Shown: piece by piece, positions 1,595 through 40,283 of the stretch
Numbering within the stretch: the first letter of the stretch is position 1
How the letters are laid out: every line of letters begins with the position of its first letter
From: an uncultured bacterium
Lineage (GTDB): Bacteria > Chloroflexota > Dormibacteria > Aeolococcales > Aeolococcaceae
Direction: 5' to 3'
Assembly (NCBI GenBank): GCA_963847225.1
Contig: CAWJYZ010000003.1
Span: forward strand, 71,365-135,364
DNA length: 64,000 bases
The notes under the pieces: generated by a model
What the model was told of the DNA's origin: nothing
The model's input: the letters and a program-made list of their open reading frames with translations, nothing else
Database searches by the model: none
Translations under genes and position numbers: made by a program

Positions 1595-2389
1595 TCAGCG
1601 GATCACAAAGCTGGAGGCTTGGGGTCCCGGCCCCGGGTTGGCGGGTACGGCGATGGCGTCCTCCGCTCCCAGGCCGTCGGCCGTCCCCGAGAAGGCCGGG
1701 CTGGTGGACACGCTGAGCTCCCCATTCTCCAGCTCGACCTCGGTGATCGACCCCCGACCGAGGGGCACCCGCCACCGCTCGCCGGGAAGGTCGCGGACGC
1801 TGGTGAGCATCAGCCGGATCATCACCGCATGGGTGACGGCGGCCACCGCCTCGCCGCCGTGCCGTCCCCCCATCAGCTGCAGACTCTCCAGGAAGCGCTC
1901 GCGTGCCTGGCTGAGCCGTTCACCGTTGGGGCACACGCACTGCAGGGGGTCCTCGCGGTACTGGAAGAAGCTGTCCGGGTCGTACGTTCGGGCCTCGTCC
2001 GCGGTCATCCCCTCCCAGGCGCCGTAGTCGAGGTTGGTGAGGCCGTGCAGGATGCGGATGTCCGGCACGCCCGCCTCGTCGGCGACGATCTGCGCGGTCG
2101 CGATGGTGCGCCGCAGCGGCCCGGTGTAGACAGCGCTCAGCCCGCGCTGGGAGAGGAAGCGGGCCGCGTCGACGGCATCCTGGTACCCCTGGGCGTCGAG
2201 AGGAACGTCGCGCCGGCCGCGATAGCGGTTCTCGCGGTTCATGGTCGTGGTGCCGTGACGGATCAGGTAGACCCGGCACGTCCCGCCGACGCTCACCACC
2301 CGCGGTAGCCCGCGCACAACCTCTGCCGTGTCCACACCGGTCCCCCTCTGATCTGCCTCCGTGTGCTGGACAACTTCGCACATCGCCAT
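1595..2389 (-). CDS. Histidine phosphatase superfamily (branch 1, PGM-like) protein
   Basis: 'RVYLIRHGTTTMNRENRYRGRRDVPLD' (RHG motif), 'GPLRRTIATAQIVAD', 'AAVTHAVMIRLML'. Full-length paralog of 7993..8688. The ORF opens at 2680, but the first ~97 codons have no counterpart in the paralog, so ATG 2389 was chosen. Start uncertain. Confidence 0.8.
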   Translation of the reverse strand: MAMCEVVQHTEADQRGTGVDTAEVVRGLPRVVSVGGTCRVYLIRHGTTTMNRENRYRGRRDVPLDAQGYQDAVDAARFLSQRGLSAVYTGPLRRTIATAQIVADEAGVPDIRILHGLTNLDYGAWEGMTADEARTYDPDSFFQYREDPLQCVCPNGERLSQARERFLESLQLMGGRHGGEAVAAVTHAVMIRLMLTSVRDLPGERWRVPLGRGSITEVELENGELSVSTSPAFSGTADGLGAEDAIAVPANPGPGPQASSFVIR

Positions 2390-2614
2390 CTCGATGGTCA
2401 ACCACCCAGATTGGTCGTCGGGACCCCCCAGATCAGCCCCGCGCAGTGTCCCGACCATGGCGCCGCGGCGGGGTCCTCCCATTGCACCGCCCGGGGTGAC
2501 CGGGGCGGCAGGACCGCTGTGGTAGCGTGTTATCGCTTGGGAAAAACGAAAGGTTCGGAAAGAGAGCGGCCATGGCCGCAGCGAGCCGACATCCCGCCGG
2601 CAGAGCGGCCACGC

Positions 2615-3487
2615 TTGGTCTTCGTGCTCGGCACCGGGCGGTGCGGGTCCACGCTCGTTCAGGAGATCCTCTGCCGCCACCCGGAGGTCGGGTTCGCCTC
2701 CAACCTGGCCGACCGGCTGCGTCTCCCCGCCCGGGCATCACGCTGGAACGGCGTTCTCTACCGCAATCTCCCGGCGGCAGCAACTCGGAAGGGTCGCATC
2801 CGCTACGCGCCATCCGAGTCGTACCGTGCCTTCGATCGGGCAGTGTCGTCTCTGTTGAGCGTTCCCTTCCGCGACCTCGTGGCGGAGGACGTGACCCCGT
2901 GGGTGGAGCGCCAGCTGCGCGCCTTCTTCCTGGGACGAGCGCATGCGCAGGGTGTGGACATCTTCCTTCACAAGCTCACCGGCTGGCCCCGGGTCGGATT
3001 TCTCGACCGGATCTTCCCGCAGGCCCGCTTCATCCACGTTGTGCGCGACGGCCGCGCGGTGGCCAACTCCTGGCTGCAGATGCCCTGGTGGCTCGGCTAC
3101 CGTGGTCCGGAGAAGTGGCAGTGGGGCCCGTTGCCTCCCGACCTTGCGGCCGGCTGGGCGGCGTCCGGATACTCCTTCGTGCTGCTTGCCGGCCTCCTGT
3201 GGGCTCTGCTCCTGGATGCGTACGAGCGAGCGGCCGCAGGACTGCCGGCGGACCGACGGCTGCAAATCCGCTATGAGGACGTCATCGCCCAGCCGCGGGA
3301 GGCCTTCCGGCGCATGCTCGACTTCTGCGGGCTGAGCTGGACACCCGGGTTTGAGCGTGGCTTCCGCCGCTACAGCTTTGCCCGGCAGAGGGAGGACGCC
3401 TTTGTCCGCGACCTCTCGGCCGCCCATGTCGAGCTCCTCACCGCCGCGCTCCGGTCGCGGCTGGTGGCGCACGGCTACGCCGCGTAG
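2615..3487 (+). CDS. PAPS-dependent sulfotransferase (class A, paralog of 8685..9611)
   Basis: 5'-PSB loop 'VLGTGRCGSTLV' and 3'-PB-like 'FIHVVRDGRAVANSWLQ'. The ORF opens at GTG 2363, but there is no ATG before the P-loop. In-frame TTG 2615 gives an N-terminus matching the paralog ('LVFVLGTGRCGST' vs 'LVVVFGTGRCGST'). Start uncertain. Confidence 0.75.
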   Translation: MVFVLGTGRCGSTLVQEILCRHPEVGFASNLADRLRLPARASRWNGVLYRNLPAAATRKGRIRYAPSESYRAFDRAVSSLLSVPFRDLVAEDVTPWVERQLRAFFLGRAHAQGVDIFLHKLTGWPRVGFLDRIFPQARFIHVVRDGRAVANSWLQMPWWLGYRGPEKWQWGPLPPDLAAGWAASGYSFVLLAGLLWALLLDAYERAAAGLPADRRLQIRYEDVIAQPREAFRRMLDFCGLSWTPGFERGFRRYSFARQREDAFVRDLSAAHVELLTAALRSRLVAHGYAA

Positions 3488-3519
3488 CGACAAGGAGGAG
3501 ACGGTCAGCGCTCCCTCGG

Positions 3520-4434
3520 TCAGTCGGCCGTCCCCGGGCTGGGCCGGCGGATGAGCAGTCGGTCACTGCGCCGAACCAGCATCCAGAGCAGCGGGCCGAC
3601 CACCGCCACGGAGAGGACCGTGAGGGCGAGCAGCATGCCGCCCACCTGGACGAGCTTGAGGCCGGTGGCGAGAAGGACGACGGAGAGCATTCGCCGCACC
3701 AGGCGCGGCGGGGCCAGGGACGAGACCTGGGCGCCGAAGAAGACACCGGGGACGCCGCCCACGATGAGCGAAACGCTCAGCGCGAACTGCACGTCGCCGA
3801 AGAGGAGGTGGGCAATCGCTGCGGAGCCGACCAGGGGGATGGCCTGTACTAGGTCGGTGCCGACGAGCTGCGGCGCCGTGAGACGCGGATAGAGGAAGAG
3901 CAAGAGGACGATGATGATGGTCCCCGCGCCCACCGAGGTCATGCCCACCACCAGGCCGCCGAGAGCGCCAACCAGGAGGGTGGGCAAGGGACGGACCTGG
4001 ACGCGCGCCGCGGGGCGGGAGCTGAGGTGCTCTCCGCTGGCGCGCTGGCGGAGATTCAGCAGTGCCTTGAGCACCATGCCCCCCACGGCCAGGAGCAGCG
4101 CCGCGCCGAGAGCGTACTGCACGATGTCCTGGATCCGCCCGCCGTGGGCAAAGAGCTTGAGCAGCAGCACTCCGGCGAACGCACTGGGCACGGAGCCGAT
4201 CCCTAGCCAGAGAGCCATCCTGCCTTGGACGGTGCGGCGGCGCAGGTGGACCGCAGCCCCAAGCGGCCGCATGACCAGAGAGGCGACCAGGTCGCTCGAC
4301 ACCGCGGCAGGGGCTGGCACTCCGAAGAGCAGAACCAGCATCGGGGTCATCAGCGCGCCCCCGCCCATTCCGGTCAGGCCCACGATGAAGCCGACAATCA
4401 GGCTCCCGACCGTGATGGGAAGATCGAGATGCAT
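3520..4434 (-). CDS. TauE/SafE family sulfite/organosulfonate exporter-type permease
   Basis: 'GFIVGLTGMGGGALMTPMLVLLFG' and the second-half repeat 'GALGGLVVGMTSVGAGTIIIVLL'. Polytopic and hydrophobic throughout. Confidence 0.8.
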   Translation of the reverse strand: MHLDLPITVGSLIVGFIVGLTGMGGGALMTPMLVLLFGVPAPAAVSSDLVASLVMRPLGAAVHLRRRTVQGRMALWLGIGSVPSAFAGVLLLKLFAHGGRIQDIVQYALGAALLLAVGGMVLKALLNLRQRASGEHLSSRPAARVQVRPLPTLLVGALGGLVVGMTSVGAGTIIIVLLLFLYPRLTAPQLVGTDLVQAIPLVGSAAIAHLLFGDVQFALSVSLIVGGVPGVFFGAQVSSLAPPRLVRRMLSVVLLATGLKLVQVGGMLLALTVLSVAVVGPLLWMLVRRSDRLLIRRPSPGTAD

Positions 4435-4887: not shown

Positions 4888-4890
4888 ACG

Positions 4891-6204
4891 TCAGTTCCCG
4901 ATCGGGGGGGCGAGCGGCTGCAGCGGGGTGCCGCCTCCCCCGATTGAGCTCGGGCCGTTGTTGGCAACGACGGCAAGGTGGGAGAAGATCGCGCTGATGT
5001 CGTGGGACCAGGGGGTGCCGGTCCCCGCAGGGGCCTCGAAGGGGAAGCCCCACGCCTGCTGGAACTGCGCCACCATCGATCCCGAGGGCCCCTCCTCCGT
5101 GCACACGGCAAAGACGCTGCGGGCGGCATCGTCGACGACGTAGGCGCCGTAGTTCTGCAGGGTCCAGGCGAGCATCCGCCCGGGCTCGGTCTCCAGCCCG
5201 AGGGAGCCGATGCTCATGCTGGTGGGCAGTGCGAGCAGAGCCCCCATCCGCAGTGCCGGCACCGTCCCTCCATAACAGCCGGGAGCACAGGCGTCGTGGC
5301 GGATCGCAGGCCATCGATAGCCCTGCGGGAAGAGGTCGGTAGCCCCATTCAGATCGATGGCCAGGGCATGCCGGATGCTTCCGCCGGGCACCAGCTCGCC
5401 AAGCCGTATCGCTCCACCGAATGAGCTCAATCCCGAGCCGCCGTGGCCGCCGAGGATGCCATTGCCGTACAGGTCGGCCGCCGGCGAGAGGGTCAGGAGG
5501 GTCGCGGGTCCTCCTGACGCGCAGCGTGCGAAGGGCTCTCCCTGAACAACGGTCCGCCCGTCCGGCATCACCGCGGCGAGGGTGTCGTTCTGCCCGTCGC
5601 TGGCGACGGTGAAGCCCGGCGGTATGGGCGCGCTCGCCAGAGTGCCGCCCCCGGGACACCGGTTGGAACCCGACCATCCCGCCCCGCTGTACTCGATCGT
5701 CGTCATCGGAGCCGTCGGGTCCATGACGATGATGTCCGGGTCGGCGGCCAGGTCTTTGTGGGTCCGGGGTGCAAGGTTGGCCGGGATGAAGAGGCTCCGA
5801 GAGCCAATCGGCATGTTCCAGATGCTGGTCGCCGCGAAAGGCCATACGTACTTGTTGCGCGTGGCGGCAGAGGGCTTGGGCGTGGGGCTCGGGCGGCGGG
5901 TGGCGCTGCGGGGGGCCGTCGCGGAGGAAGAGGGGGTGGTGCTGGCCGCCAGGCTCGGACTGGAACTCGGGCTCGAATAGGGGCTGGGGGGCGTCCACCC
6001 GCCGGAGGCCGGGCCGGCAAGGCCCGCGACGGCAGATGGCAGAACGGGGGTCGAGGAGGTGAGGGCGACATCGCGACCGCCGACCGCCGAGGCGGCCACC
6101 GCTCCGCTGAGCAGCGCACAGATGCAGGCCAGACATCGCCGGCGGGCCGCCCCGCCGGCGCCACCCCCGCGCAAACGGCGCCACAGGGACTCATGATCGC
6201 CCAC
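4891..6204 (-). CDS. Secreted protein: signal peptide, S/P/T-rich linker, unassigned ~320-aa domain ('domain X')
   Basis: GTG 6204 with GAGGGGA 7 nt upstream. Signal-like 'RRRCLACICALLSGAVAASAVGG'. Residues from about 117 align with the C-terminal half of 12295..14454 ('SIWNMPIG', 'GGSGL', 'RHAL', 'YGG..PALRMG.LLA.P', 'AWTL..YGAYVV.D.ARSVFAV', 'NGPS..GGGG.PLQPLA.P'). Confidence 0.75.
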   Translation of the reverse strand: MGDHESLWRRLRGGGAGGAARRRCLACICALLSGAVAASAVGGRDVALTSSTPVLPSAVAGLAGPASGGWTPPSPYSSPSSSPSLAASTTPSSSATAPRSATRRPSPTPKPSAATRNKYVWPFAATSIWNMPIGSRSLFIPANLAPRTHKDLAADPDIIVMDPTAPMTTIEYSGAGWSGSNRCPGGGTLASAPIPPGFTVASDGQNDTLAAVMPDGRTVVQGEPFARCASGGPATLLTLSPAADLYGNGILGGHGGSGLSSFGGAIRLGELVPGGSIRHALAIDLNGATDLFPQGYRWPAIRHDACAPGCYGGTVPALRMGALLALPTSMSIGSLGLETEPGRMLAWTLQNYGAYVVDDAARSVFAVCTEEGPSGSMVAQFQQAWGFPFEAPAGTGTPWSHDISAIFSHLAVVANNGPSSIGGGGTPLQPLAPPIGN

Positions 6205-6296: not shown

Positions 6297-6812
6297 TCAG
6301 CGGCCGCTCGGCGCTTCCCTCTCGTGACGGCGGGAGGCGACGGCCACGGGCAGGTCGTCGCTGCCGCTGGCCCGATAGGCAGCGGCCAGATGGCGAACCT
6401 CATCTGGCAAAGAGCCGTCGGCCACGTCGGCCAGGCTCACCTCCTCGAGAACGGAGCGCAGGCTGGCCCGCACCGCCATCCATACATCCTCTAGCGGCTC
6501 GGACGCCCCCCCGTAACCCAGCTGGGCGACGCGAGTGTCGCGCAGGTTGACCAGTGGCCCGTCCACGACCCGCATCACCTCGGCGAGGCTGATCTGCGCC
6601 GGCGGGCGGGAGAGGACGTACCCGCCCTCGGTGCCCCGGTGGCCGGTGACCAGGCGGGCACGCCGGAGTTCAGCCAGGATGCCGAGAAGAAAGCGCAGGG
6701 GGATGTCCTGCTGGGTGGCGAGGCGCTCGGCCTTCAACGGCTTGCCGCCCGGCTCGGCGGCCAGCTGCACCATGGCCCGGAGCGCATAGTCGACCTTGGC
6801 GGAGACCCTCAC
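6297..6812 (-). CDS. Rrf2-family transcriptional regulator
   Basis: 'VRVSAKVDYALRAMVQLA', '...IPLRFLLGILAELRRARLVTGHRGTEGGYVLSRP' (wHTH). GTG 6812 gives the canonical Rrf2 N-terminus; the ORF opens at 6881. Confidence 0.85.
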   Translation of the reverse strand: MRVSAKVDYALRAMVQLAAEPGGKPLKAERLATQQDIPLRFLLGILAELRRARLVTGHRGTEGGYVLSRPPAQISLAEVMRVVDGPLVNLRDTRVAQLGYGGASEPLEDVWMAVRASLRSVLEEVSLADVADGSLPDEVRHLAAAYRASGSDDLPVAVASRRHEREAPSGR

Positions 6813-7001: not shown

Positions 7002-7823
7002 ATGAGCGTCAGAGAGAGGGTGGGGGAGCGGAGCGCGTGGCCGCTCGGAGCGGCGGCATTCGATGCCATCCAATCCGACCATGACCTGGCGGGTGCGGTC
7101 GCGGAGGAGGCCGGTCGGGCTCTGCTGTCGCTTCGGAGCGAAGTCGGTCACGACAATCCCGACGTCCTGCGCGATCTGGGCGACAGGCTATCGCACACGC
7201 TGATCACGCTGCGGCTCGCCAAGCAGCGCCCCGGTGATTCGATCCTCTCCGAGGAGGGCGGGGACGGCGCTGCGCGGCTTGCTTCCCGCCGCGTGTGGAT
7301 CGTCGATCCCCTGGACGGCACCCGTGAGTTCGGCGAGGTCGGGCGCTGTGACTGGGCTGTCCATGTCGCCCTGGTCGAAGGCGGCTCGCCCGTTGCCGCT
7401 GCGGTGAGCCTGCCGGCTCGGGGTCTGGTGATGACCACGGCGGCTGTTCCGCCGCGTGCCCCACGGCACGGCGGACGGCTCCGGCTGGTTGTGAGCCGGT
7501 CGCACACCCCGCGGCAGGCAACGGCGATCGCCGAGGACTTGGACGCTGAGCTGATCCACATGGGATCGGCGGGCGCCAAGGCCATGGCCGTCGTTCTCGG
7601 AGAGGCGGACGCGTACATCCACCTCGGCGGCCAATACGAGTGGGACTCCGCTGCCCCGGTCGGCATCGCTCTCGCTGCCGGTCTCCGGGCCAGCCGGATC
7701 GACGGGTCGCCGCTCAGGTACAACCAGCCCAATCCCTGGCTGCCCGACCAGGTGATCTGTCGACCGGAGATGCACTCCCCACTCCTGGTGGCGCTGCGCT
7801 GCCGTGTGCACGCGGCGGCCTGA
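7002..7823 (+). CDS. cysQ: 3'(2'),5'-bisphosphate nucleotidase (PAP phosphatase), inositol-monophosphatase fold
   Basis: 'ILSEEGGD', 'WIVDPLDGTREF', 'GQYEWDSAAPVGIALAAGL'. ATG 7002 is preceded by GAGGGG; the ORF opens at 6843. Confidence 0.85.
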   Translation: MSVRERVGERSAWPLGAAAFDAIQSDHDLAGAVAEEAGRALLSLRSEVGHDNPDVLRDLGDRLSHTLITLRLAKQRPGDSILSEEGGDGAARLASRRVWIVDPLDGTREFGEVGRCDWAVHVALVEGGSPVAAAVSLPARGLVMTTAAVPPRAPRHGGRLRLVVSRSHTPRQATAIAEDLDAELIHMGSAGAKAMAVVLGEADAYIHLGGQYEWDSAAPVGIALAAGLRASRIDGSPLRYNQPNPWLPDQVICRPEMHSPLLVALRCRVHAAA

Positions 7824-7992: not shown

Positions 7993-8688
7993 ATGGCTGG
8001 TTCAGCACCGTCCCAATCGCGCGTGCGTTCGGTCGAGGGACCCTGCCGCATCTTCCTGGTGCGTCACGGGACCGCGCGGGTAAACGCGGAGAATCGATAC
8101 CGCGGTCGCTGGGACGTGCCTCTCGACGTGCAGGGATACGAGGACGCGGTGGACGCGGCGCGCGCCCTCTCCGGTGTCCGGCTGAGCGCGGTCTACGCCG
8201 GGCCGCTGCGGCGGACCATCGCCACCGCGCAGATCATCGCCGACCAGTCGGGAATCCCCGACATCCGCATCCTCCAGCAGCTGACCAACGTCGACTACGG
8301 GATGTGGCATGGCATGACCGCGGCCGAGGCCGAGGCGAACAACCCGAAGGCCTTTGGTCTCTACTGCACCTCGCCGCTCGAGTGCGCCTGCCCCAACGGC
8401 GAACGACTGGTGGACGCCCAGGAGAGGATGGTGGAGGCGCTACAGCTCATCGGCGTCCGGCATCCGGGCGAGAATGTGGCCGGTGTCACCCACTCGGTCA
8501 TGATCCGCCTGCTGGTGGCACGGGTCGCGGGGATCAGCGGCCGTGGCTGGAGACTGCCGGTCAGCCGCGACGGGATCGTCGAGCTCCACGTCGAGGACGG
8601 CTCGGTCAGACTGGTCACGCCGCTCGAGGACGATGAGGCGACTTCGCCCGTGGCCCCTGCTGGCATAGGGATCAGCGAGCCCACGTGA
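7993..8688 (+). CDS. Histidine phosphatase superfamily (branch 1) protein, paralog of 1595..2389
   Basis: 'RIFLVRHGTARVNAENRYRGRWDVPLD', 'GPLRRTIATAQIIAD', 'GVTHSVMIRLLV'. RBS GAGGGGAG lies before the ATG. Confidence 0.85.
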   Translation: MAGSAPSQSRVRSVEGPCRIFLVRHGTARVNAENRYRGRWDVPLDVQGYEDAVDAARALSGVRLSAVYAGPLRRTIATAQIIADQSGIPDIRILQQLTNVDYGMWHGMTAAEAEANNPKAFGLYCTSPLECACPNGERLVDAQERMVEALQLIGVRHPGENVAGVTHSVMIRLLVARVAGISGRGWRLPVSRDGIVELHVEDGSVRLVTPLEDDEATSPVAPAGIGISEPT

Positions 8689-9611
8689 CGCTGGTCGTCG
8701 TCTTCGGGACGGGGCGCTGCGGCTCCACCCCCATCGCGGAGGTGCTCTGCCGCCATCGTGATGTCGGCTTCGTCTCGAACGTCGATGACAAGCTGAGCCT
8801 GCTCAACCTGGTGGGCCGCTGGAACAACACGCTTCACCGGCTGTCGCCGCCGCGTGACCCCCGGCTGCGGCCCTTTCGTGACCGGCAGAAGATGATCGAG
8901 CTGGCCCGGCTGCGCATCGCCCCCTCCGAGGCGTGGAAGCTGCTCGACAGACAGGTTGCCCCCATCATGGCGCAGCCCTTCCGCGACCTGCTGGCCGATG
9001 ACTGCACTCCCTGGCTTCGCCAGCGACTGCGCAGCTTCTTCGAGCGCCGCATGGCCGCGCAGCGACGGCCTCTCTTCCTGCAGCACCTCACCGGCTGGCC
9101 GCGGGTGGGCTTGCTACGGGCCGCCTTCCCCGACGCGCGCTTCATCCACGTCATCCGCGACGGCCGAGCGGTCGCCAACTCCTGGCTGCAGATGGGCTGG
9201 TGGCGCGGCTACGAGGGCCCGACCTCCTGGCACCTGGGCCCGCTGGCCGCCGCCGAGGCGGAGGAGTGGGAGCGCTCCGCCCGTTCCTTCGTGGTGCTGG
9301 CCGGCCTGGGCTGGCGGATTCTCATCGACGCCTTCGAGGCGGCCCGAAGGGAGGTCCCGCCCGAGCAGTGGATGCAGCTGCGTTACGAGGATGTCGTGGC
9401 CGAGCCGCGCCGGCAGGTCGCCGCCACGCTCGAGTTCATGGGGCTGCAGTGGAGCGATGACTTCGGGCGCCAGTTCGCCCGCTACCGTTTCGAGGCTGGA
9501 CGGGTGCAAGGCTTCCGTCGCGACCTCGATCCTGCCAGCCTGGCTCAGCTGGAGGTCAGCATCGGGGACAGCCTCCGCGCCTACGGGTACGAGACCTCGG
9601 CCGAGTGCTGA
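8685..9611 (+). CDS. PAPS-dependent sulfotransferase (class A)
   Basis: The GTG start overlaps the upstream stop (GTGA, 8685-8688). 'VFGTGRCGSTPI', 'FIHVIRDGRAVANSWLQ', 'LTGWPRVG'. Confidence 0.85.
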   Translation: MTLVVVFGTGRCGSTPIAEVLCRHRDVGFVSNVDDKLSLLNLVGRWNNTLHRLSPPRDPRLRPFRDRQKMIELARLRIAPSEAWKLLDRQVAPIMAQPFRDLLADDCTPWLRQRLRSFFERRMAAQRRPLFLQHLTGWPRVGLLRAAFPDARFIHVIRDGRAVANSWLQMGWWRGYEGPTSWHLGPLAAAEAEEWERSARSFVVLAGLGWRILIDAFEAARREVPPEQWMQLRYEDVVAEPRRQVAATLEFMGLQWSDDFGRQFARYRFEAGRVQGFRRDLDPASLAQLEVSIGDSLRAYGYETSAEC

Positions 9612-23473: not shown

Positions 23474-25216
<1,743 letters not shown>

Positions 25217-32559: not shown

Positions 32560-33567
32560 TCATTCCGCGCTCCCCAAGGCGCCCCGGGCCCGGGTGGTCT
32601 CCACGGGCTCGCCGCGTGCTTGGGTCTGGGACGTCATCCGGACCGGGTAGCCATAACGGAGGAGGAGGGGAGCGGTGACGGTGGTCACCAGCAACCGGTC
32701 GCGCGCCGACATTGAGGTCAGCCACCGGGTGTCCTGGTGCACCTGGGTAGCCCCGTGGTGAAGCCGGTCGGGATTCCCGGCGACACTGTGATTGGGGCCG
32801 AGTCGCACGTCGCCATCCTCCCCCCAGGGAATGGGAGCGTCCTCCTCCATCCCCACGAGGCGGAGGATCCGCCGCATCGCGCGCACCGGCTCAGCGACCA
32901 GATCCTCATAGCGGAGCCGGAGATAGGTGCCCTGGCCCCGGTCAAGGAGGGCGGCGGCGGCGGTGTTCCAGACGTCCCAGAGCGCAGCGCTCTTCAAGGG
33001 ACCGATCTGCTGCATGTGGGATCGCTTCGCGCCATCGCCGAGGGTCTTGCGGCTCGACCATGAATGTGCCGCGGCGCGCGGGTCCCGGATCAGATGGACC
33101 ACTCGGAGGTCGATATCGGGGACTGCCGTCAGCAGGTTGGCGTAGACGGGAAGCTTCGAGGAGTCCACCACCACCTGGCTCGATGTGATGTCGGCGATTG
33201 CGGCGTAGAGGCCACGGAGGACAGTCCGGACCTCGGCGAGACGCGCCAATCGGCCGGGATCCCGCCGTGGGAGCGCCCGACCGGCAAGAGCCTCTGGCAG
33301 GCTCCGGACCCGCCCTGTCTTGCCGAGCAGCTCGGCCATCGCCTCCGGACTGGGGGCCGGTCCCCGGGATGCCGCCAGTACCTGCGTCCACACCGGGCAT
33401 TCAGGGACGGGCACCCCGCACCCGCAGAACCGGCGCTCGACGAGGCCGCGCTGCCAGAGGTAGCGCACCTCTCCGGCGGTGAAGACACCGGGGAGCTCGC
33501 CGAGGAGGCAGGCGAGCAGGGTGCTTCCACTGCGGCCGGTGCCGGCGATGTAGAGAACTCTGGTCAC
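32560..33567 (-). CDS. PAPS-dependent sulfotransferase (class B, Cys-motif type) embedded in the polysaccharide operon
   Basis: 'VLYIAGTGRSGSTLL', 'FCGCGVPVPECPVW', 'VVHLIRDPRAAAHSW'. Confidence 0.85.
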   Translation of the reverse strand: MTRVLYIAGTGRSGSTLLACLLGELPGVFTAGEVRYLWQRGLVERRFCGCGVPVPECPVWTQVLAASRGPAPSPEAMAELLGKTGRVRSLPEALAGRALPRRDPGRLARLAEVRTVLRGLYAAIADITSSQVVVDSSKLPVYANLLTAVPDIDLRVVHLIRDPRAAAHSWSSRKTLGDGAKRSHMQQIGPLKSAALWDVWNTAAAALLDRGQGTYLRLRYEDLVAEPVRAMRRILRLVGMEEDAPIPWGEDGDVRLGPNHSVAGNPDRLHHGATQVHQDTRWLTSMSARDRLLVTTVTAPLLLRYGYPVRMTSQTQARGEPVETTRARGALGSAE

Positions 33568-33669: not shown

Positions 33670-34839
33670 TCATCGACCCGCCGCCACATCCACGCCGTCG
33701 GTCTGAGCAGGTTGGTGGAGCACGCGGTCGCGGCCGTTGCCATAGCTCGGCTCACCGCCGAAGCTGAGCGGAGACGCCACGTGGGAGGAGCGCCGGGCGC
33801 CAAAGAGAGGTGGGCTGGCGACCCGCTCCTCGTTGGCTGGCTCGTCGACGGGGTGCTCGGCTCCGCCGATCGCGCTGAGTGCCGGAGCGCGGGCAGGAGC
33901 GGGCGGCTCCTCCTCTGCCGCACGGCTGCTGCGCATCAACTCCATGAGGAGCAGGAGACCGAGAGCCAGAATCAGGGCGACGGCAAAACCGATGCCCGCG
34001 AACTTCAGGGTGTTGGACAGCCGGGAGATCCGGCCGACGTTCCGAGTCACCACGGTGGTCGGGTTGTGGTCGGCAGCGAGCAGGGCTTGGGCGTCGTTGA
34101 GCTCCTGAGCAGCGTGGTCCCGAACCGTCAGCGCAGCCTGGCGCGCATCGCTGAGGCTGGAGTACTGGGTCAGCTGGGTGGCGAGGGTGGCGAGCTGCTG
34201 CTGGCGCTGCGTGATGATCTGCTGGAGAGCGGTCGCTCGCGCACTGTCGCCGACGATCTGCGCTTGCTGCAGCTGCAGCTCCAGCTGGTTGAGCTCCGAC
34301 TGTTGGGTGGTGAACAGCTGCTGGGGGTTGATCTGGCCGGTCCTGGCCGAGAAGTTCGTGAGCGCGGCATCGGCCTGCTGCAGCTGAGTCTGAGCCGCAG
34401 CCACCGCATTCTCCGCCTGGACGAGCTGCGGCTCGGCGATGGTGTCGAGAGCGATTGTCGATTCCTGGCTGACCACCGCCGTGGTGTTCTGGCCCTTGTA
34501 TCCCAGGTAGGTCACCTGAATGATGTTGCTCGACGCGGTGGCGGTCGTCGCGGTCACTCCGTCGACAAGATTGGCCACCGGGACGTGCGTGTCCGCCGAA
34601 ACCCTATCGACCACCGGACTAGATATGAGCACGTCTTGGAGGGTCGCTTCGTATTGCGCCGCGGCGCTGGTCGAGAAGCCGTGAGCGCTCACCGCGGGGA
34701 CGATCACCGTTGCCTGAGCCTCGTACCGGGACGGCTGCCCTTCGAGGATGAGGCCACTGAGGAGCGCAGCGGCGAGAGGTAGGCCGATGGGCAGCCAGAG
34801 CCAGCGGCGGATCGTTTGCAGATAGGCGCGTATTTCCAC
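33670..34839 (-). CDS. Polysaccharide co-polymerase (Wzz/GumC-like chain-length determinant) without a kinase domain
   Basis: GTG 34839, 16 nt after the upstream stop. N-terminal TM 'WLWLPIGLPLAAALLSGLIL', Q/A/L-rich coiled coil, C-terminal TM 'FAGIGFAVALILALGLLLLMELM'. No Walker motifs in the tail. Confidence 0.65.
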   Translation of the reverse strand: MEIRAYLQTIRRWLWLPIGLPLAAALLSGLILEGQPSRYEAQATVIVPAVSAHGFSTSAAAQYEATLQDVLISSPVVDRVSADTHVPVANLVDGVTATTATASSNIIQVTYLGYKGQNTTAVVSQESTIALDTIAEPQLVQAENAVAAAQTQLQQADAALTNFSARTGQINPQQLFTTQQSELNQLELQLQQAQIVGDSARATALQQIITQRQQQLATLATQLTQYSSLSDARQAALTVRDHAAQELNDAQALLAADHNPTTVVTRNVGRISRLSNTLKFAGIGFAVALILALGLLLLMELMRSSRAAEEEPPAPARAPALSAIGGAEHPVDEPANEERVASPPLFGARRSSHVASPLSFGGEPSYGNGRDRVLHQPAQTDGVDVAAGR

Positions 34840-34855
34840 GGTCGTCAGGTCCTCC

Positions 34856-35701
34856 TCAGATGTCCGGGAGCGGGTGGCGGGAGCGGTACGCGGGGAGAGC
34901 CCACCCCGCCGCGAGCAGGATCGCGCCGAGGGTAAGGATGAGCAGTCCGATGCTGATCCCCCCACCGCTTCCACCGGCCCCGGTGCCCGGGGTGCTGGCG
35001 GCTAAGACGTCCCCCCCAGGGGTGGCGGTGGAGCTCCCGGCTCCCTGTCCGGAGGGCGTGGAGGTGGACGTCGTCGCGGTGGAGGTTGGCTGCACGGAGC
35101 CCGACGGCGTCGGCGTCGTCAGTGGCGAGGTACAGCCGAGGACCCGGATGAAGCCGGAGGCGAGGCTCGCCCGGTTCTTCTGCTTCTGACCGGGGTACTG
35201 GTGAGCTGTGTGGGTTCCGATGTCGATCTGGAAGTAGCCGCAAGTGTCGACGCTGTACTCGTGGAGGAGTGTCTGGGTCTCGTTGGGCGTCCAGGTGACG
35301 CTGAAGGCCTGACTGCCGGGCATGGTGGCCTGGGTGGTGCCCTGCGGCCCCGGGAAGGCGATTCCAGGCTGGCCGGGCTGACCGTCGGAGACGTCGACCC
35401 CGTTGTAGGTGAGGATGTGATGGAGCGAGAAGGTGAAGGCGACGGTCTGCGTTTGGTCGGTGAGATTCTTGACCACCACATCGAAGTCAACGAGTGCCGG
35501 CCCGTCCGCGACGTCATAGGCGGTGGGGCTAACCTGGAACCCGGTCGGCGGGCTGGCATCCAAGATACCAAGAAAGGTCGGATTGCCCCCAGCCGCGACG
35601 GGGACCGGGATGGCCGATAGGGCGATGATGGCGGCACCGAGGGCGCTGAGGACGCCACCGCCGCGCTTGACCCAGGTCCTCGGACTCCGCTGGCCCTTCA
35701 T
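34856..35701 (-). CDS. Secreted protein with C-terminal anchor / sorting-signal-like tail, unknown function
   Basis: ATG 35701 with AGGAGG upstream and signal 'VLSALGAAIIALSAIPVPVAAGG'. C-terminus: '...STPGTGAGGSGGG' + 'ISIGLLILTLGAILLAAGWAL' + 'PAYRSRH'. Confidence 0.6.
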   Translation of the reverse strand: MKGQRSPRTWVKRGGGVLSALGAAIIALSAIPVPVAAGGNPTFLGILDASPPTGFQVSPTAYDVADGPALVDFDVVVKNLTDQTQTVAFTFSLHHILTYNGVDVSDGQPGQPGIAFPGPQGTTQATMPGSQAFSVTWTPNETQTLLHEYSVDTCGYFQIDIGTHTAHQYPGQKQKNRASLASGFIRVLGCTSPLTTPTPSGSVQPTSTATTSTSTPSGQGAGSSTATPGGDVLAASTPGTGAGGSGGGISIGLLILTLGAILLAAGWALPAYRSRHPLPDI

Positions 35702-35774
35702 CGGCGTCTCGCCTCCTGATATGCGGGTGCTTGGCATCCTCATGCACATGCGTTGTGGGCCCCTCCTCATCTCG

Positions 35775-36680
35775 TCAACAGGTCCGCGGCGGTGACGACC
35801 CGTCATCCGCCATGCAGGTCGTGATCTGGCTGAGTTCTGCTCGGGCGCTCGAGGCCGGTCCATTTTCCGTGCCGAGCTCCTCGCCCTTGAGAGCCTGCAG
35901 CTGCCCCACGTTGGCGGGATAGCCGGCGGGGGTCAACTGAAGCACCTGGGAGAAGAGGGCTCGCGCCGTCGACTGCATGGCGCTCGCCTGGCTCTCTACC
36001 CGCGCGAGGAGGGCCTTCTCCGTGGAGTAGTTGGCTGCCGAGCTCGTCAGAGCCCGACCCAGGTTCGCCGCGCGCCCGGCGATGGAGGAGGCCTCGACGC
36101 TCATGATGCCGGCTCCGATCCCAACGTGGACCAGGGGGTCGATGAGGCCGCCGACCCGGGTCGACGGGTCGACGCTGCGGACGTCTTGCAGGAGCACGTC
36201 CTCCAGGCTGTCCGTGGCGATCTTCGCCCCCACGGCTTGCAGCTGATGCTGGACGTCGTGGACCAGGGAGAGGAGGGCGGCGGCTTGGCTGGAACCGAGG
36301 CGGGCGGACTGGATATCGCCGATCAGCCTGTCCAGTACCTTCTGTCGTTCGGCGACGGCGCCGGCGCCGAGCCGTCTGAGGGAGTCCATCTGCTCCGCGA
36401 CGATGAGGGTGTGGTCGTTCATGAGGGCGTTGATCTCGGCCGTGATCTGGGTTGGCTCGCCATCACTGGGTGTGAGATCAATCTGGTTGAGCTCGCTGAC
36501 CAGCCGCTGCTCCAAGGCGTCCACGGCCTGGTTGGTCGATGCCACCGGGAGGGGCGGGCTGGCGACGGCCGGCGTCCCGATGACGGGGCCATACTCGGTG
36601 GTCCCGCACGCAGCCAGGGCGACTGCCGCGCTGGCCATGGCGCCCAGCCATGCTGCGGTCCGCAACCCCATACCTGTCAT
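35775..36680 (-). CDS. Helical lipoprotein of unknown function, first gene of the polysaccharide operon
   Basis: 'AAWLGAMASAAVALAACGT' (lipobox). The rest is predicted all-alpha (A/L/Q rich). Confidence 0.55.
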   Translation of the reverse strand: MTGMGLRTAAWLGAMASAAVALAACGTTEYGPVIGTPAVASPPLPVASTNQAVDALEQRLVSELNQIDLTPSDGEPTQITAEINALMNDHTLIVAEQMDSLRRLGAGAVAERQKVLDRLIGDIQSARLGSSQAAALLSLVHDVQHQLQAVGAKIATDSLEDVLLQDVRSVDPSTRVGGLIDPLVHVGIGAGIMSVEASSIAGRAANLGRALTSSAANYSTEKALLARVESQASAMQSTARALFSQVLQLTPAGYPANVGQLQALKGEELGTENGPASSARAELSQITTCMADDGSSPPRTC

Positions 36681-36923
36681 GGTCCCCCTCTGCCGTCTCG
36701 GCTCCCCGCTTGCGCCTGGTCACCGTGGACTGCTCGGATAAAATCAGCCGTGCCCGAAGACTGAGGCATTATCCCAGGCCGGTCCGCAAAGAGTCAATTT
36801 GTCGACATCGAAAGCTTCCGCGGCGGAGTGGGGGAATGCAACCCAATTGGGGGATCGGTGGCCCATTCAGGGGGGATATTGGGGGACGGTAGACGGAAAT
36901 ACCGCCGCCGCCATCGCCCGCTG

Positions 36924-36952
36924 TTGACCCATCCAGTCCGTTCAGGTACGCT
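36924..36952 (+). promoter_or_regulatory. Possible sigma70-type promoter for the priming transferase / PAPS synthase operon
   Basis: TTGACC (36924-36929), 17-nt spacer, TACGCT (36947-36952), about 70 nt upstream of ATG 37023. Pattern match only. Confidence 0.3.
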
Positions 36953-37022
36953 GAGTGGTGCACAGCTGGCGGGGCAGTGGCCTCTTGTATCACCTGACGC
37001 CGGCTGCACAGAGGGGGTCTGC

Positions 37023-38576
37023 ATGGCGGGGGTAGCGGATGTGGGGGACGGCTCGACCGAGCTGGCGGCGGTCCCCGCGGATTTTGTAGATGTCACTCTG
37101 ATCGGGCGCCGGAGCGCCGAGCTCGCCAGACGTGTTCGGGACGCTGTTCCTCATGCGCCGGCCCGACCGCGGGCCCGCACCCGCTGGCTGATGGTCATGG
37201 CTCTGCTGTCTCTGGCGGTTGACGTGGTCGCTGTCGAGCTCGCCTACATTCTTGCCAAGGCCTTCCGTGCCACCCACTTCGACATCGGCCCGGTGCTTCT
37301 CCATGAGGTTGATACGAGGATCTTCCTCACCAGCCTGGCCTGGCCCATGGTGTTCGCGCTCTATGGCCTGTATGACCTTCAGCGACCCACGCATATGACA
37401 GCCGAGATGCAGCGTCTACTGCAAGCCGTGGTCACGAGCGTCCTGCTGGTCGTCCTCATCGCCTTCGCCACCCAGATCGAGCTGTCCCGCGGGTTCATCC
37501 TCTCCCTCCTCGGGTTCGGCCTCGTCACCACGGTGGGGGGGCGGCTGGCGCTACGACGGTTAGCCCATGACTTGAATGCTCGGGCCGTCACCAGCCAGCT
37601 AACCTTGGTCGTCGGGTGCAACGACGAGGCTCGGACCATGGCGCGCACCTTCCGACGGCGCCCCTGGATGGGATACGCCGTCAGCGGGTTCGCCGAGGTC
37701 TCGCCAACAGGTCTCGACCATATCGACGGAATCCCCGTTCTGGGAGGCATCGAGAGCGTCGGCTCCATCGTCCGCGAGCGAGGCATCAGCACCATCGTGA
37801 TTGCCGGCAGTGCTGCGGGTGGTGAGACGCTCCAGCAGATCGACAGCGCCCTGGATGGCGCGGACGTGACCGTGCGGGTGTCGCCGGGATTGCCAAACCT
37901 CGGTGCCTCCCGCGTCGTTCTCGAGCCGGTCGATGGCATGGCCCTGTTTTCCCTCCGTCGCCAGCGCTTCTCTCGGCGCCAGCGACTGCTGAAACGCGCT
38001 CTGGACGTGGTAGCCGCTTCAATTCTCCTGACGATCACCCTGCCGTTCATCGTGGTTGCCGCCGTGTTGGTGCGGGTGACCAGCTCGGGTCCGGTTCTCT
38101 TTCGGCAGCGCAGGGTTGGCGCCCATGGACACCTCTTCACCCTCTACAAATTCCGCACCATGGTCCAAGACGCAGAAGAGCAGCGGTCGATCCTCCAGGC
38201 CGACAACGAGGCGGACGGCCTCCTCTTCAAGATGCGCGATGACCCGAGGGTAACTCGTGTCGGCCGCGTTCTCCGCCGCTTCTCTCTCGACGAGCTTCCC
38301 CAACTGTGGAACGTTCTGCGCGGTGAGATGAGCATGGTGGGTCCTCGGCCCGCGCTGCCCGAGGAGGTCGAGCGGTACGATGAGCAGCGCCGCGCCAGAC
38401 TGCGGGTCAAGCCGGGCCTCACCGGCCTCTGGCAGGTCAATGGGCGGCATGACCTGGTGTTCGAGGATTACGTGCGCTACGACCTCTTCTATGTTGCCAA
38501 CTGGTCCTTGACGATGGACCTCTACATCCTTGCGAAGACCATACCTGCGGTGCTCGGCGCTCGCGGGTCGTACTGA
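37023..38576 (+). CDS. Polyprenyl-phosphate sugar-1-phosphate transferase (WbaP/ExoY-type priming enzyme)
   Basis: ATG 37023 with GAGGGGG upstream. 'RALDVVAASILLTITLPFIVVAAVLVRVTSSGPVLFRQRRVGAHGHLFTLYKFRTM' and 'DELPQLWNVLRGEMSMVGPRP'. N-terminal TM bundle plus a central Rossmann-like region. Confidence 0.85.
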   Translation: MAGVADVGDGSTELAAVPADFVDVTLIGRRSAELARRVRDAVPHAPARPRARTRWLMVMALLSLAVDVVAVELAYILAKAFRATHFDIGPVLLHEVDTRIFLTSLAWPMVFALYGLYDLQRPTHMTAEMQRLLQAVVTSVLLVVLIAFATQIELSRGFILSLLGFGLVTTVGGRLALRRLAHDLNARAVTSQLTLVVGCNDEARTMARTFRRRPWMGYAVSGFAEVSPTGLDHIDGIPVLGGIESVGSIVRERGISTIVIAGSAAGGETLQQIDSALDGADVTVRVSPGLPNLGASRVVLEPVDGMALFSLRRQRFSRRQRLLKRALDVVAASILLTITLPFIVVAAVLVRVTSSGPVLFRQRRVGAHGHLFTLYKFRTMVQDAEEQRSILQADNEADGLLFKMRDDPRVTRVGRVLRRFSLDELPQLWNVLRGEMSMVGPRPALPEEVERYDEQRRARLRVKPGLTGLWQVNGRHDLVFEDYVRYDLFYVANWSLTMDLYILAKTIPAVLGARGSY

Positions 38577-38627
38577 TCGCGGCGCCCATAGGGTGGTCGC
38601 CTGGCACAACCGAACCTGGGAGAAGCG

Positions 38628-40283
38628 ATGGCCAAGGGTTTCGTCATCTGGTTGACCGGCCTGTCAGGTGCTGGGAAGTCGACGATCGCCGGACAGCTCT
38701 CCCGGGAGCTCCGCGAGCTGGGCCGGCATGTCGAGGTTCTCGATGGGGACGAGGTGCGCACCCACCTCTCCAAGGGCCTGGGGTTCTCCAAGGAGGACCG
38801 CGACACCAACATCCGCCGCATCGGCTATGTGGCGGGCCTGGTGGGCCGGAGCGGCGGGATCGCCATCACGGCGGCCATCTCCCCCTATCGTGAGATTCGC
38901 GACGAGATCCGAGGCCGGACCGAGAACTTCGTCGAGGTGTATGTGCGCTGCACCCTGGATGAGTTGATCCGGCGGGATGTCAAGGGTCTGTACGCCAAGG
39001 CCCTCGCCGGCGAGATCGCCAACTTCACCGGTATCAGCGACCCCTATGAGGAGCCTCTCCACCCGGAGATTGTCGTCGACAGCGGACGGGAATCGGTGGA
39101 GGATTCGGTTCGAATCATCCTCGCCCGGCTGGAGCAGCTGGGGCACATCGCACTCGGTGTCGGCGAGAGGCTCGTGGACGGGGAGGAGGCGAAGCTTCTC
39201 CGCGAGGAGGCGCGGACGCTGCCGTTCCTGGACCTGAGCCCGCACGCGGCAGCCGACGCCGGGATGATCGGGATTGGGGCGCTGGCCCCTCTGCGCGGTT
39301 TCATGGGGTCTGCCGACTACACGGCGGTCCTCGACTCTGGTCGGCTGCGCGGGGGCCAGCCGTTCACCATCCCCGTGGTCCTGCGCCTGGACGAGGACGA
39401 CGCAGAGCGGCTGCGCGCGGCCAGGCGTGTGGCGCTGCGATCGGCTGGGAAGGTGGTCGCCGTCACGGACGTGGAGGAGGTCTTCCGGACCGACCCGGCT
39501 CGGGAGGCGCTGACCGTCTATGGCACCGATGAGACAGCTCATCCCGGGGTCCGGCTGCTCCAGACCTCGGGTGACTGGGCGCTGGCGGGACCGGTGACGG
39601 CGCTCAGCCGTCCGAGCACGGGTTTCCCGGTGTACGACCTCACGCCGCTCGAGGTGCGACGGCTCATCGCCGAGCGAGGCTGGCGGACGGTGGTTGGTTT
39701 CCAGACCCGCAACCCCGTCCACCGCGCCCACGAGTATCTCCAGAAGGTGGCTCTCGAGAACGTTGATGGGCTGCTGCTCCATCCCCTGGTCGGGGAGACC
39801 AAGAGCGACGACATCCCGGCTGACGTGCGGATGGCGTGCTATGAGGTGCTCCTGGAGGGGTACTACCCGAAGGACCGGGTCCTGCTGGTGACCAATCCGG
39901 CCTGGATGCGCTACGCCGGCCCCAAGGAGGCGGTCTTCCACGCCCTGATCCGGCGCAACTACGGATGCACCCACTTCATCGTCGGTCGCGACCACGCCGG
40001 GGTGGGGAGCTACTACGACACGTACGCTGCCCACCGGATCTTCGACGAGTACGCACCCGGCGAGCTGGGCATCGAGATCCTGCGCTTCGAGCATGCGTTC
40101 TTCTGCCGCGCCTGTGGTGGGATGGCATCGACTCGAACCTGCCCACACTCCGTCGACGACCATGCGGTGCTGAGTGGCACGCGGGTCCGTGAGCTCCTCC
40201 GGCGGGGTGAGCCGCTGCCGCTCGAGTTCACCCGCCCGGAGATCGCCGAGCTGCTTCGGACGTCCACCGAGGACGTCGCCTAG
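38628..40283 (+). CDS. Bifunctional PAPS synthase: N-terminal APS kinase (CysC) + C-terminal ATP sulfurylase (Sat)
   Basis: Kinase: 'IWLTGLSGAGKSTIA', 'LDGDEVR', 'FSKEDRDTNIRRIGYVA'. Sulfurylase: 'GFQTRNPVHRAHEYL', 'HPLVGETKSDDIP', 'IVGRDHAGVG'. Confidence 0.9.
   Translation: MAKGFVIWLTGLSGAGKSTIAGQLSRELRELGRHVEVLDGDEVRTHLSKGLGFSKEDRDTNIRRIGYVAGLVGRSGGIAITAAISPYREIRDEIRGRTENFVEVYVRCTLDELIRRDVKGLYAKALAGEIANFTGISDPYEEPLHPEIVVDSGRESVEDSVRIILARLEQLGHIALGVGERLVDGEEAKLLREEARTLPFLDLSPHAAADAGMIGIGALAPLRGFMGSADYTAVLDSGRLRGGQPFTIPVVLRLDEDDAERLRAARRVALRSAGKVVAVTDVEEVFRTDPAREALTVYGTDETAHPGVRLLQTSGDWALAGPVTALSRPSTGFPVYDLTPLEVRRLIAERGWRTVVGFQTRNPVHRAHEYLQKVALENVDGLLLHPLVGETKSDDIPADVRMACYEVLLEGYYPKDRVLLVTNPAWMRYAGPKEAVFHALIRRNYGCTHFIVGRDHAGVGSYYDTYAAHRIFDEYAPGELGIEILRFEHAFFCRACGGMASTRTCPHSVDDHAVLSGTRVRELLRRGEPLPLEFTRPEIAELLRTSTEDVA

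Follow-up and report, generated by a model that had tools for sequence, protein, structure and literature searches.

What does an uncultured bacterium make with four sulfotransferases that are encoded close to the enzymes supplying and recycling their sulfate donor? The question is raised by a 64,000-nucleotide (nt) stretch of a dormibacterial genome (GenBank assembly GCA_963847225.1, contig CAWJYZ010000003.1, positions 71,365 to 135,364), hereafter the window. Between positions 1595 and 40283 the window encodes four sulfotransferases (ST1 to ST4) dependent on 3'-phosphoadenosine 5'-phosphosulfate (PAPS), together with a fused PAPS synthase (PAPSS), CysQ, a phosphatase of 3'-phosphoadenosine 5'-phosphate (PAP), a TauE/SafE (TSUP) permease and an Rrf2-family regulator. 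An initial annotation had listed these eight genes and proposed that they serve the dedicated production of several sulfated molecules. All eight were found where that annotation had placed them, with their families confirmed by Pfam, and the idea of a real PAPS-consuming sulfation locus holds, as the donor synthase and the PAP phosphatase are co-located and have kept their catalytic motifs. Regarding the product our reading is a different one: the interval is probably the Dormibacterota version of a sulfated-polysaccharide locus, which would produce one multiply and heavily sulfated Wzx/Wzy-type polymer of the cell surface. The gene identities, the intact motifs, the operon-like spacing and the conserved synteny are observed, and from them we infer a glycan acceptor, a single polymer shared by all four sulfotransferases and the existence of the product itself.

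Genes were picked by third-position G+C in the window, whose G+C content is 66-71%, and were annotated with Pfam and NCBIfam. The comparison set comprised 80 genome loci and 80 metagenome loci encoding ST1/ST2 relatives (cited below by L numbers); extra loci were gathered via relatives of ST2, PAPSS and the histidine phosphatases (HP1 and HP2) described below, and the window proteins were placed on all loci by tblastn. The nearest relatives of ST2, HP2 and PAPSS belong to Candidatus Dormibacterota metagenome-assembled genomes (65-84% identity), and no cultured representative occurs among the matches to these three proteins. The window's own proteins are recorded from one 1.46-Mb contig only. 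A literature search pairing Dormibacterota with sulfotransferase returned nothing.

All four sulfotransferases match Pfam Sulfotransfer_3 (PF13469, cut-off 27 bits), with 95.4 bits for ST1 (2615..3487, plus strand, start codon TTG), 85.8 bits for ST2 (8685..9611, plus strand), 47.2 bits for ST3 (10972..12015, minus strand, start probably at 11895) and 56.7 bits for ST4 (32560..33567, minus strand). A six-frame motif scan of the 64 kb detected exactly four sulfotransferase P-loops, namely those of ST1-ST4. The proteins are of two types, ST1/ST2 and ST3/ST4, with 49% identity between ST1 and ST2, 35% between ST3 and ST4 and about 27-29% between the types. Near the N-terminus each carries the 5'-phosphosulfate loop (pattern GxxRxG[ST][ST]), which reads GTGRCGST in ST1 and ST2, GCTRSGST in ST3 and GTGRSGST in ST4, and which aligns to PRSGTT of the protein-tyrosine sulfotransferases TPST1/2 and PRSGST of PDB 4gox. 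The 3'-phosphate motif R-x(7)-S follows as RDGRAVANS (ST1, ST2), RDSRGTAYS (ST3) and RDPRAAAHS (ST4), aligned to RDGRASVHS of TPST. The initial annotation had named missing PAPS-binding residues as the point that would tell against sulfation; both the loop and the RDxRxxxxS motif are kept in all four proteins when these are aligned to TPST and 4gox. The PAPS-binding columns are also invariant when ST1 and ST2 are aligned with eight homologues; the profile of this alignment sets all three PAPS-binding segments onto those of TPST2. The ST4 motifs align to the polyketide-synthase sulfotransferase domain of 4gox. The family alignment further contains an invariant Glu, E82 of ST2, a candidate catalytic base for the predicted sulfuryl transfer from PAPS to an acceptor. 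None of the four has a signal peptide or membrane segment, which points to activity in the cytoplasm, the site of PAPS synthesis.

It is a Wzx/Wzy operon that gives this sulfation locus its meaning. The complete operon was absent from the initial annotation, as were the two histidine phosphatases, four secreted phosphoesterases of family PF04185 (PE1 to PE4) and a dual-specificity (Cys-based) phosphatase domain protein (20097..20918, minus strand; PF22784 and PF00782). A run of minus-strand genes, none more than 145 nt from the next, extends between 36680 and 23474 and comprises in this order unk301 and unk335 (together 34856..36680), which encode secreted or membrane proteins at a position conserved in relatives and matched no Pfam or NCBIfam family; a Wzz-like chain-length protein of the polysaccharide co-polymerase (PCP) kind with two membrane segments and a coiled coil (33670..34974); ST4; a MurJ-like flippase of the MOP superfamily (30698..32443; PF03023, 174 bits), which we take as the Wzx of the cluster since its position there is conserved; a Wzy-type polymerase with a Wzy_C domain (29164..30645; PF04932, 80 bits); and two family 4 glycosyltransferases identified by Pfam, GT4b (27857..29098) and GT4a (26517..27860). 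The run ends with unk377, a secreted lipoprotein (25362..26495) for which no Pfam, NCBIfam or PDB match was obtained, and the secreted phosphoesterase PE4 (23474..25336; 67.5 bits). ST4 is therefore embedded between the flippase and Wzz genes. Divergent from the run, on the plus strand, are the genes of a priming polyprenyl glycosylphosphotransferase (PGT, 36828..38576; PF02397, 232 bits; TIGR03025, 427 bits against a cut-off of 296) and of PAPSS, which starts 52 nt downstream of PGT. The cluster (23.5-38.6 kb) thus provides three glycosyltransferases, compared with four sulfotransferases in the window. Between 21000 and 40800 only two sigma-70-like sites were detected, one per strand and both in the divergent gap 36681-36827 (that at 36797-36768 lies upstream of the minus-strand operon), although the count of such sites is not above that of a shuffled control and the consensus may not be the phylum's own.

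In relatives the ST4 orthologue is a fusion of 618-651 amino acids (aa), in which the ST4-type domain is joined to a sulfotransferase domain of another kind, which has an RSGT loop of its own; this two-domain form was found in L001 (16736-18691) and also in L002, L003 and L086. The second domain had no match anywhere in the window. Its loss by a frameshift was considered and rejected, for this reason and because the gap between ST4 and the flippase gene is only 116 nt.

Are the other three sulfotransferases connected with this operon? Within the window the three genes (ST1, ST2 and ST3) are separated from it by 14-30 kb, and the connection comes from other genomes. One or more polysaccharide genes were located within 10 kb in 70 of the 80 genome loci, 59 of which hold two or three sulfotransferase genes. 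In ten Dormibacterota genome loci ST2 orthologues (65-74% identity) adjoin the block GT4a-GT4b-Wzy-MurJ-ST4-Wzz-unk335, and in four further Dormibacterota loci no more than 7 kb separates the ST2 orthologue from the cluster. ST1 orthologues (64-66% identity) abut PGT, at the opposite cluster end, in ten other Dormibacterota loci, where they are preceded by a further, distant sulfotransferase. ST3 is linked less directly: its orthologue lies about 19 kb from the polysaccharide cluster on the contig of one relative, contig_8977 (L089 plus L006), which over about 42 kb carries CysQ, an unk377-like gene, HP, the ST3 orthologue, PF04185 genes, unk437 paralogues (see below), ST2 and the cluster. The left part of this arrangement is repeated in L090 and L094. 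In L089 and L090 the ST3 orthologues (68-71% identity) and HP are in convergent orientation, and Pfam indicates an equivalent HP-sulfotransferase arrangement in L094.

The arrangement also extends to PAPSS, CysQ and other lineages. L086, whose PAPSS is 81% identical to that of the window, has the cluster, the priming transferase, a distant sulfotransferase and PAPSS in succession, with PAPSS about 1.4 kb from the priming transferase and one sulfotransferase gene between them. A compact PGT-HP-ST2 order was found in six metagenome contigs and in the genome locus L021; CysQ is next in two of the six and PAPSS is nearby in one. Outside the phylum, 35 loci, mostly from Micromonosporaceae genomes, present GT4b followed by an ST4-type and then an ST2-type gene, and most of them have Wzy or Wzz nearby along with a third, distant sulfotransferase. 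ST4-type homologues with 33% identity were also located in Wzx/Wzy-type clusters on a 1.6-Mb Sinorhizobium meliloti plasmid and a Ruegeria plasmid. The comparison of relatives, proposed in the initial annotation as a check, thus bears it out to the extent that the same gene families are kept together in Dormibacterota and many Actinomycetota. Such recurrence indicates that the clustering is not due to chance, a conclusion based on the relatives, as a single window gives no computable odds. Judging from these comparisons, the whole neighbourhood is a lineage feature and the window a rearranged copy of it, with ST1 and ST2 shifted to positions beside the HP genes.

Since orthologues of ST1, ST2 and ST4 flank or sit in the same Wzx/Wzy cluster, one multiply sulfated glycan is the more economical explanation. 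The claim of several sulfated molecules could be maintained in a modified form, with ST4 acting on the polysaccharide, while the groups HP1-ST1-TauE and HP2-ST2 as well as ST3 would modify a metabolite, osmolyte or lipid, one such product being exported by TauE. We regard this as doubtful, though with an appreciable chance of being correct. The low identity between the two sulfotransferase types would suit it, and so would the occurrence of ST-HP pairs in several Actinomycetota, namely Intrasporangiaceae and Nocardioidaceae (L004, L023, L024, L027, L029), with no polysaccharide genes within 10 kb. Moreover, one other genome (L051) has TauE paired with ST1 (69% and 70% identity) in surroundings that are otherwise unrelated, and exporters of sulfite and of sulfoacetate are known within the TauE family (PMC11535334). 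On the other hand, in most relatives the ST1, ST2 and ST4 orthologues are found within one polysaccharide cluster, with the ST3 orthologue not far away in one of them; HP is located between the priming transferase and ST2 in seven contigs; and the window has no gene for making a specific small acceptor. For these reasons the plural in the original proposal does not seem justified.

Several points nevertheless weigh against a single sulfated polymer. The distance of ST1, ST2 and ST3 from the operon in the window, mentioned above, is bridged only by the synteny of other genomes. The ST-HP pairs remote from polysaccharide genes indicate that enzymes of the ST1/ST2 type may also have non-polymer acceptors, and the position of TauE beside ST1 would equally fit the export of a small sulfated product. 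The Wzz-like protein of the window scores 17 bits with PF02706 against a cut-off of 25.5, hence below the Pfam threshold, while its orthologues in L001 and L002 are recorded in the family with no mark of weakness. As the flippase is matched by the MurJ profile and not by that of classical Wzx proteins in Pfam, it might instead be the protein that flips lipid II. Finally, the sulfated polymer would be a product deduced from genomes.

PAPSS (38628..40283, plus strand) consists, according to Pfam, of an N-terminal APS (adenosine 5'-phosphosulfate) kinase, a PUA_2 domain and a C-terminal ATP sulfurylase. The kinase (PF01583, 201 bits; TIGR00455, 218 bits against a cut-off of 139) presents GLSGAGKST, LDGDEVR and FSKEDRDTNIRR, corresponding to the P-loop, DGD and FSxxDRxxNIRR, and the sulfurylase (PF01747, 316 bits; TIGR00339, 395 bits against a cut-off of 323) presents QTRNPVHRAH and VGRDHAG. 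This fused form is the standard enzyme of Dormibacterota, with homologues of 68-84% identity and the same domain order. Orthologues with 75-78% identity also occur in assimilatory operons, behind a sulfate ABC transporter in L087 and between the genes of CysH (PAPS reductase) and sirohaem synthase/sulfite reductase in L088, which implies that PAPSS serves assimilation as well. The proposal of a PAPS production dedicated to sulfation can thus not be claimed from the window alone: by comparison with these operons PAPSS does not appear to be inherently dedicated to sulfation, and it may perhaps be the sole sulfate-activating enzyme of the genome.

Concerning PAP recycling, CysQ (7002..7823, plus strand; Pfam Inositol_P, inositol monophosphatase (IMPase) superfamily) matches the PAP phosphatase of PDB 5djf with E = 1e-69 over residues 25-263, i.e., nearly its full length, and contains the motifs ILSEEG, DPLDGT and WDSAAP. 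It remains under the NCBIfam equivalog cut-offs (TIGR01331, 104.6 bits against 228.8), but in our opinion the 5djf match outweighs this, and from these similarities the predicted CysQ function can be considered solid. CysQ orthologues adjoin HP or sulfotransferase genes in relatives.

The permease TauE (3520..4434, minus strand; 135 bits with Pfam against a cut-off of 32.6) has a promoter-like site at 4539-4511. It had been regarded as an exporter or recycling function, an assignment weakened by the finding that a TauE-family member takes up sulfate and complements an Escherichia coli cysA mutant (PMC11535334). By analogy, the window TauE is a candidate sulfate importer, and import seems at least as likely as export. 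The Rrf2 protein (6297..6812, minus strand, divergent from CysQ; PF02082, 113 bits; TIGR00738, 113 bits against a cut-off of 73) contains zero cysteines and hence lacks the three-Cys Fe-S ligand set of the IscR/NsrR type, so it cannot be an Fe-S sensor of that kind and is of the cluster-less type. CymR, a cysteine-metabolism regulator, is an Rrf2 protein of the cluster-less type. It is also the next best NCBIfam model after the superfamily one, below its cut-off (78 bits against 195). An operator shared by the sulfation genes was sought in 15 intergenic regions, which yielded no meaningful common 9-mer and only isolated palindromes, leaving an Rrf2 regulon unsupported. Rfam and tRNA scans of the window found nothing, hence no riboswitch is present upstream of the sulfur genes.

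Could PAPSS, CysQ, TauE and Rrf2 then be ordinary assimilatory sulfur genes that happen to lie near sulfotransferases? The assimilatory settings of PAPSS in L087 and L088 and the resemblance of the regulator to CymR would agree with such a coincidence. It is contradicted by the lack of CysH, sulfite reductase and cysteine synthase genes in the window, by the proximity of PAPSS to the priming transferase in both the window and L086, and by at least eight independent contigs in which CysQ is linked with HP and sulfotransferase genes (L021, L089, L090, L094, L106, L109, L143, L154). We therefore find a coincidental arrangement very hard to credit.

For the sulfated polymer that we favour, the following pathway can be proposed. 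Sulfate would enter the cell, possibly via the TauE-family permease, and would be converted to PAPS by the fused APS kinase/ATP sulfurylase. At the cytoplasmic face, PGT and the two family 4 glycosyltransferases would build a repeat unit of about three sugars on undecaprenyl phosphate, and the four cytoplasmic sulfotransferases, two of the ST1/ST2 type and two of the ST3/ST4 type, would sulfate it at several positions. The MurJ-like flippase would then export the unit, Wzy would polymerise it and the Wzz-like protein would set the chain length, while CysQ would hydrolyse the inhibitory by-product PAP to AMP. HP1 and HP2 would belong to the same sulfation toolkit, where they may act on the nucleotide co-substrate (PAP/PAPS) or remove an acceptor phosphate. 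In this scheme the direction of transport by TauE and the target of Rrf2 are presumed.

HP1 (1595..2389, minus strand, divergent from ST1; PF00300, 153 bits) occupies an open reading frame extending to 2680, with a start probably near 2389; this frame, at the left edge of the annotated interval, encodes a His_Phos_1 protein and not a sulfotransferase. HP2 (7993..8688, plus strand; 147 bits) overlaps ST2 by 4 nt, indicating that the two form an operon, and a promoter-like site was detected upstream of it (7929-7957). The proteins are 61% identical and carry the catalytic RHG motif (LIRHG/LVRHG) and the second His (VTHAV/VTHSV). Neither reached an NCBIfam equivalog, and the closest solved structure to HP2 is the broad-specificity phosphatase 1ebb/1h2e.

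HP homologues with 60-73% identity are distributed across Dormibacterota and Actinomycetota, and in shared loci HP is more conserved than its partner sulfotransferase (e.g., 64% versus 57% in L004). The partner varies: HP adjoins ST2-type genes in Knoellia, Oryzihumus, Pedococcus, Nocardioidaceae and Propionibacteriales, and ST3-type genes in L089, L090 and L094. Among the seven contigs with HP between the priming transferase and ST2, CysQ is next in three, and the four loci gathered via HP relatives all include sulfation genes. The changing sulfotransferase type together with the co-occurrence of CysQ suggests that HP is tied to the sulfation chemistry itself; its putative role may be to handle PAP/PAPS or to strip phosphate from the acceptor. 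A literature search for a link between sulfotransferase and histidine phosphatase found none. That HP might be a mere replacement of CysQ was also considered and rejected, as both co-occur in the window and in L021, L089, L090, L094, L106 and L109. In Actinomycetota a gene of the Na_H_Exchanger family precedes the HP gene (L004, 8436-12626; L005; L091, 8333-10660). The order is exchanger-ST-HP in Knoellia and a farmland-soil contig, the Knoellia pair being followed by a secreted 329-aa protein, while in Petropleomorpha the exchanger gene separates HP from a nearby ATP sulfurylase gene (ATP-sulfurylase-exchanger-HP).

Secreted proteins also accompany the sulfation genes. Homologues of unk377 were found between CysQ and HP in L089 and L090 (for L094 this is judged from position and size alone) and next to GT4a in L017, L019 and L020. 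The gene unk437 (4891..6204, minus strand) encodes a secreted protein with a signal peptide and a Ser/Thr/Pro-rich linker, and it is 48% identical to residues 326-685 of PE2, that is, homologous to the C-terminal domain of this phosphoesterase. It represents a family defined by a secreted domain about 330 aa long, which has WNMPIG as a conserved motif and occurs alone (4891-6204) or fused to PF04185 (13345-14370). In L001, L006, L009, L011, L014-L017, L019 and L020 the polysaccharide cluster has one or two copies of this domain next to it. No Pfam, NCBIfam or PDB match was obtained for unk437, and the family profile gave only an insignificant GH5 hit (E = 0.024).

The phosphoesterases comprise, apart from PE4, PE1 (9670..10812, minus strand; 84 bits), which is secreted with a lipoprotein-type signal peptide and is 80% identical to PE2; the secreted PE2 (12295..14454, plus strand), with its unk437-type C-terminal domain assigned by paralogy, for which a PDB sequence search returned nothing significant; and PE3 (21950..23185, minus strand), which has a CarboxypepD_reg domain and a frame-shifted segment (22378-22620). 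AlphaFold models of the PF04185 catalytic domain and the unk437 domain, built from alignments of window paralogues only, were unusable (confidence score pLDDT 33 and 29). Between unk377 and the downstream PE4 there are 25-145 nt, according to the start codon chosen, and PE4 is thus probably co-transcribed with the polysaccharide genes.

A bolder version of the proposal can be formulated on this basis. It holds that PGT, two family 4 glycosyltransferases, two sulfotransferase types, CysQ and a dedicated HP would constitute an undescribed toolkit common to Dormibacterota and many soil Actinomycetota; that its polymer would carry about one or more sulfates per sugar, with a heparin-like charge density; that HP would have a new and necessary role in PAPS-dependent glycan sulfation; and that this phosphate-free polyanion would replace phosphate-containing wall polymers under phosphorus scarcity, the last part being suggested by the co-transcription of the operon with secreted phosphoesterases of the alkaline-phosphatase superfamily. 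Taken jointly, these four statements are unlikely to be all correct.

The same secreted proteins are relevant to another alternative, in which the product is a short sulfated O-glycan that the Wzy_C protein, acting as an oligosaccharyltransferase, moves onto pilins or onto secreted proteins with Ser/Thr/Pro-rich linkers. The Wzy_C domain is common to O-antigen ligases and PglL/PilO-type O-oligosaccharyltransferases, such linkers are present in PE1, PE2, PE4, unk437, unk377 and unk335, and in the window (40.7-48.1 kb) as well as L086 PAPSS is succeeded by a type IV pilus/type II secretion system (T2SS) block. Yet the conserved Wzz/PCP-like chain-length protein argues for polymerisation, and no pilus block adjoins the cluster in most relatives, so that an O-glycan is in our view quite improbable and a long sulfated polymer remains the preferred product. 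The block itself (PilT-like ATPase, pseudopilins, T2SSF, T2SSE) spans 40735-48096 in the window and 15865-21656 in L086, in inverted orientation, and in both it lies, together with a GAF histidine kinase/LuxR regulator pair (49458-52112 in the window), next to PAPSS.

How does the locus compare with known sulfation systems? Judged by gene content, the closest parallel is the synechan cluster xss of Synechocystis sp. PCC 6803 (PMC8205485). Both are Wzx/Wzy systems with a priming transferase, flippase, polymerase, PCP protein and embedded sulfotransferases, both models place sulfation of the repeat unit in the cytoplasm, ahead of the flipping step, and each cluster has a two-component system in it or nearby. 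However, xss contains eight glycosyltransferases and two sulfotransferases (PMC8205485) as opposed to three and four here, which would lead to a much higher sulfate density than that of synechan if all four act on the polymer. The description of xss lists no PAPS synthase, CysQ, permease or histidine phosphatase, and synechan has been chemically proven (PMC8205485), while the sulfated product proposed here is predicted from genes. Synechocystis also belongs to a different phylum with perhaps a different envelope, and no gene for an outer membrane polysaccharide export (OPX) protein was seen in the window.

Going by its description, a second parallel is wps-1 of Actinoplanes missouriensis, a predicted sulfated Wzx/Wzy polysaccharide with two sulfotransferases of different families (PMC13390465, 2026). 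Its host family, Micromonosporaceae, also carries the GT4b/ST4-type/ST2-type block identified in our comparison. On the other hand, wps-1 has in addition a GH26 hydrolase, a methyltransferase and a kinase-like protein, sulfation is a prediction there too, and the paper makes no mention of PAPS (PMC13390465). Compared with xss and wps-1, the apparently new elements of the present locus, as predicted from its genes, are the ratio of sulfotransferases to glycosyltransferases, the co-location of PAPSS, CysQ and a candidate sulfate permease, the presence of HP, the probable co-transcription of a PF04185 gene, and the phylum.

In rhizobia, LpsS and NodH/NoeE of Sinorhizobium meliloti are PAPS-dependent glycan sulfotransferases with the dedicated PAPS supply genes nodPQ. 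The rhizobial and Ruegeria loci differ from ours in having a single sulfotransferase each and diderm Proteobacteria as hosts, and their 19-kb stretches have no histidine phosphatase or CysQ annotated, the PLSDB gene tables being incomplete. The NoeE model matches ST1 and ST4 weakly (19-23 bits against a cut-off of 500). Regarding the synthase, the window PAPSS shows the domain order of the animal enzymes and is collinear with human PAPSS1 (PDB 1x6v) in one stretch (residues 3-539). For the ATP-sulfurylase domain the closest enzyme is the bifunctional one of the Aquifex type (2gks), yet it matches in two separate stretches, and the NCBIfam bifunctional-type model has the sulfurylase at the N-terminal end, whereas in the window it is C-terminal. 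Unlike the metazoan case, the same Dormibacterota enzyme is also found in assimilation.

Bacterial sulfated polysaccharides have been stated to be known only from cyanobacteria (PMC8205485; PMC13390465). The window and the roughly 170 related loci collected here show that an uncultured soil phylum and many Actinomycetota have conserved sulfotransferase-rich Wzx/Wzy clusters, often near CysQ and less often near PAPSS genes, with similar clusters in rhizobia. If our interpretation is correct, sulfated glycans would be common on the surfaces of soil bacteria, with a bearing on how water is retained, metals are bound and sulfur is cycled. New sulfated polymers would then become accessible by a tractable route through culturable carriers such as Micromonospora, and the conserved HP partner would mark a concrete, testable gap in bacterial sulfation biochemistry.

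Some additional features of the window deserve mention. At the DNA level the PF04185 genes make up two paralogue pairs, 9743-10482 versus 12415-13148 (82%) and 22202-23053 versus 24212-25078 (77%), which indicate repeated local duplication. PE3 is open in one frame, with the called frame being Arg-rich, while a match to residues 233-316 of PE4 (73% identity, tblastn) lies in another; the double frameshift reflects either a decaying paralogue or indel errors of a long-read assembly. Farther to the right, a 719-aa AAA_15/AAA_21 ATPase (52183-54342), which has no recognisable partner gene adjoining it, matches defence ATPases of the OLD, GajA, AriA and PtuA type (PADLOC, E about 1e-17). Finally, a direct repeat of 1,210 bp with 99.8% identity (two mismatches) was detected at 14503-15712 and 16747-17956. 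It covers the 3' ends of two minus-strand genes, encoding a 698-aa secreted protein and a 968-aa PQQ beta-propeller protein that share a C-terminal region of about 403 aa, and it may represent a recent duplication, gene conversion or an assembly effect.

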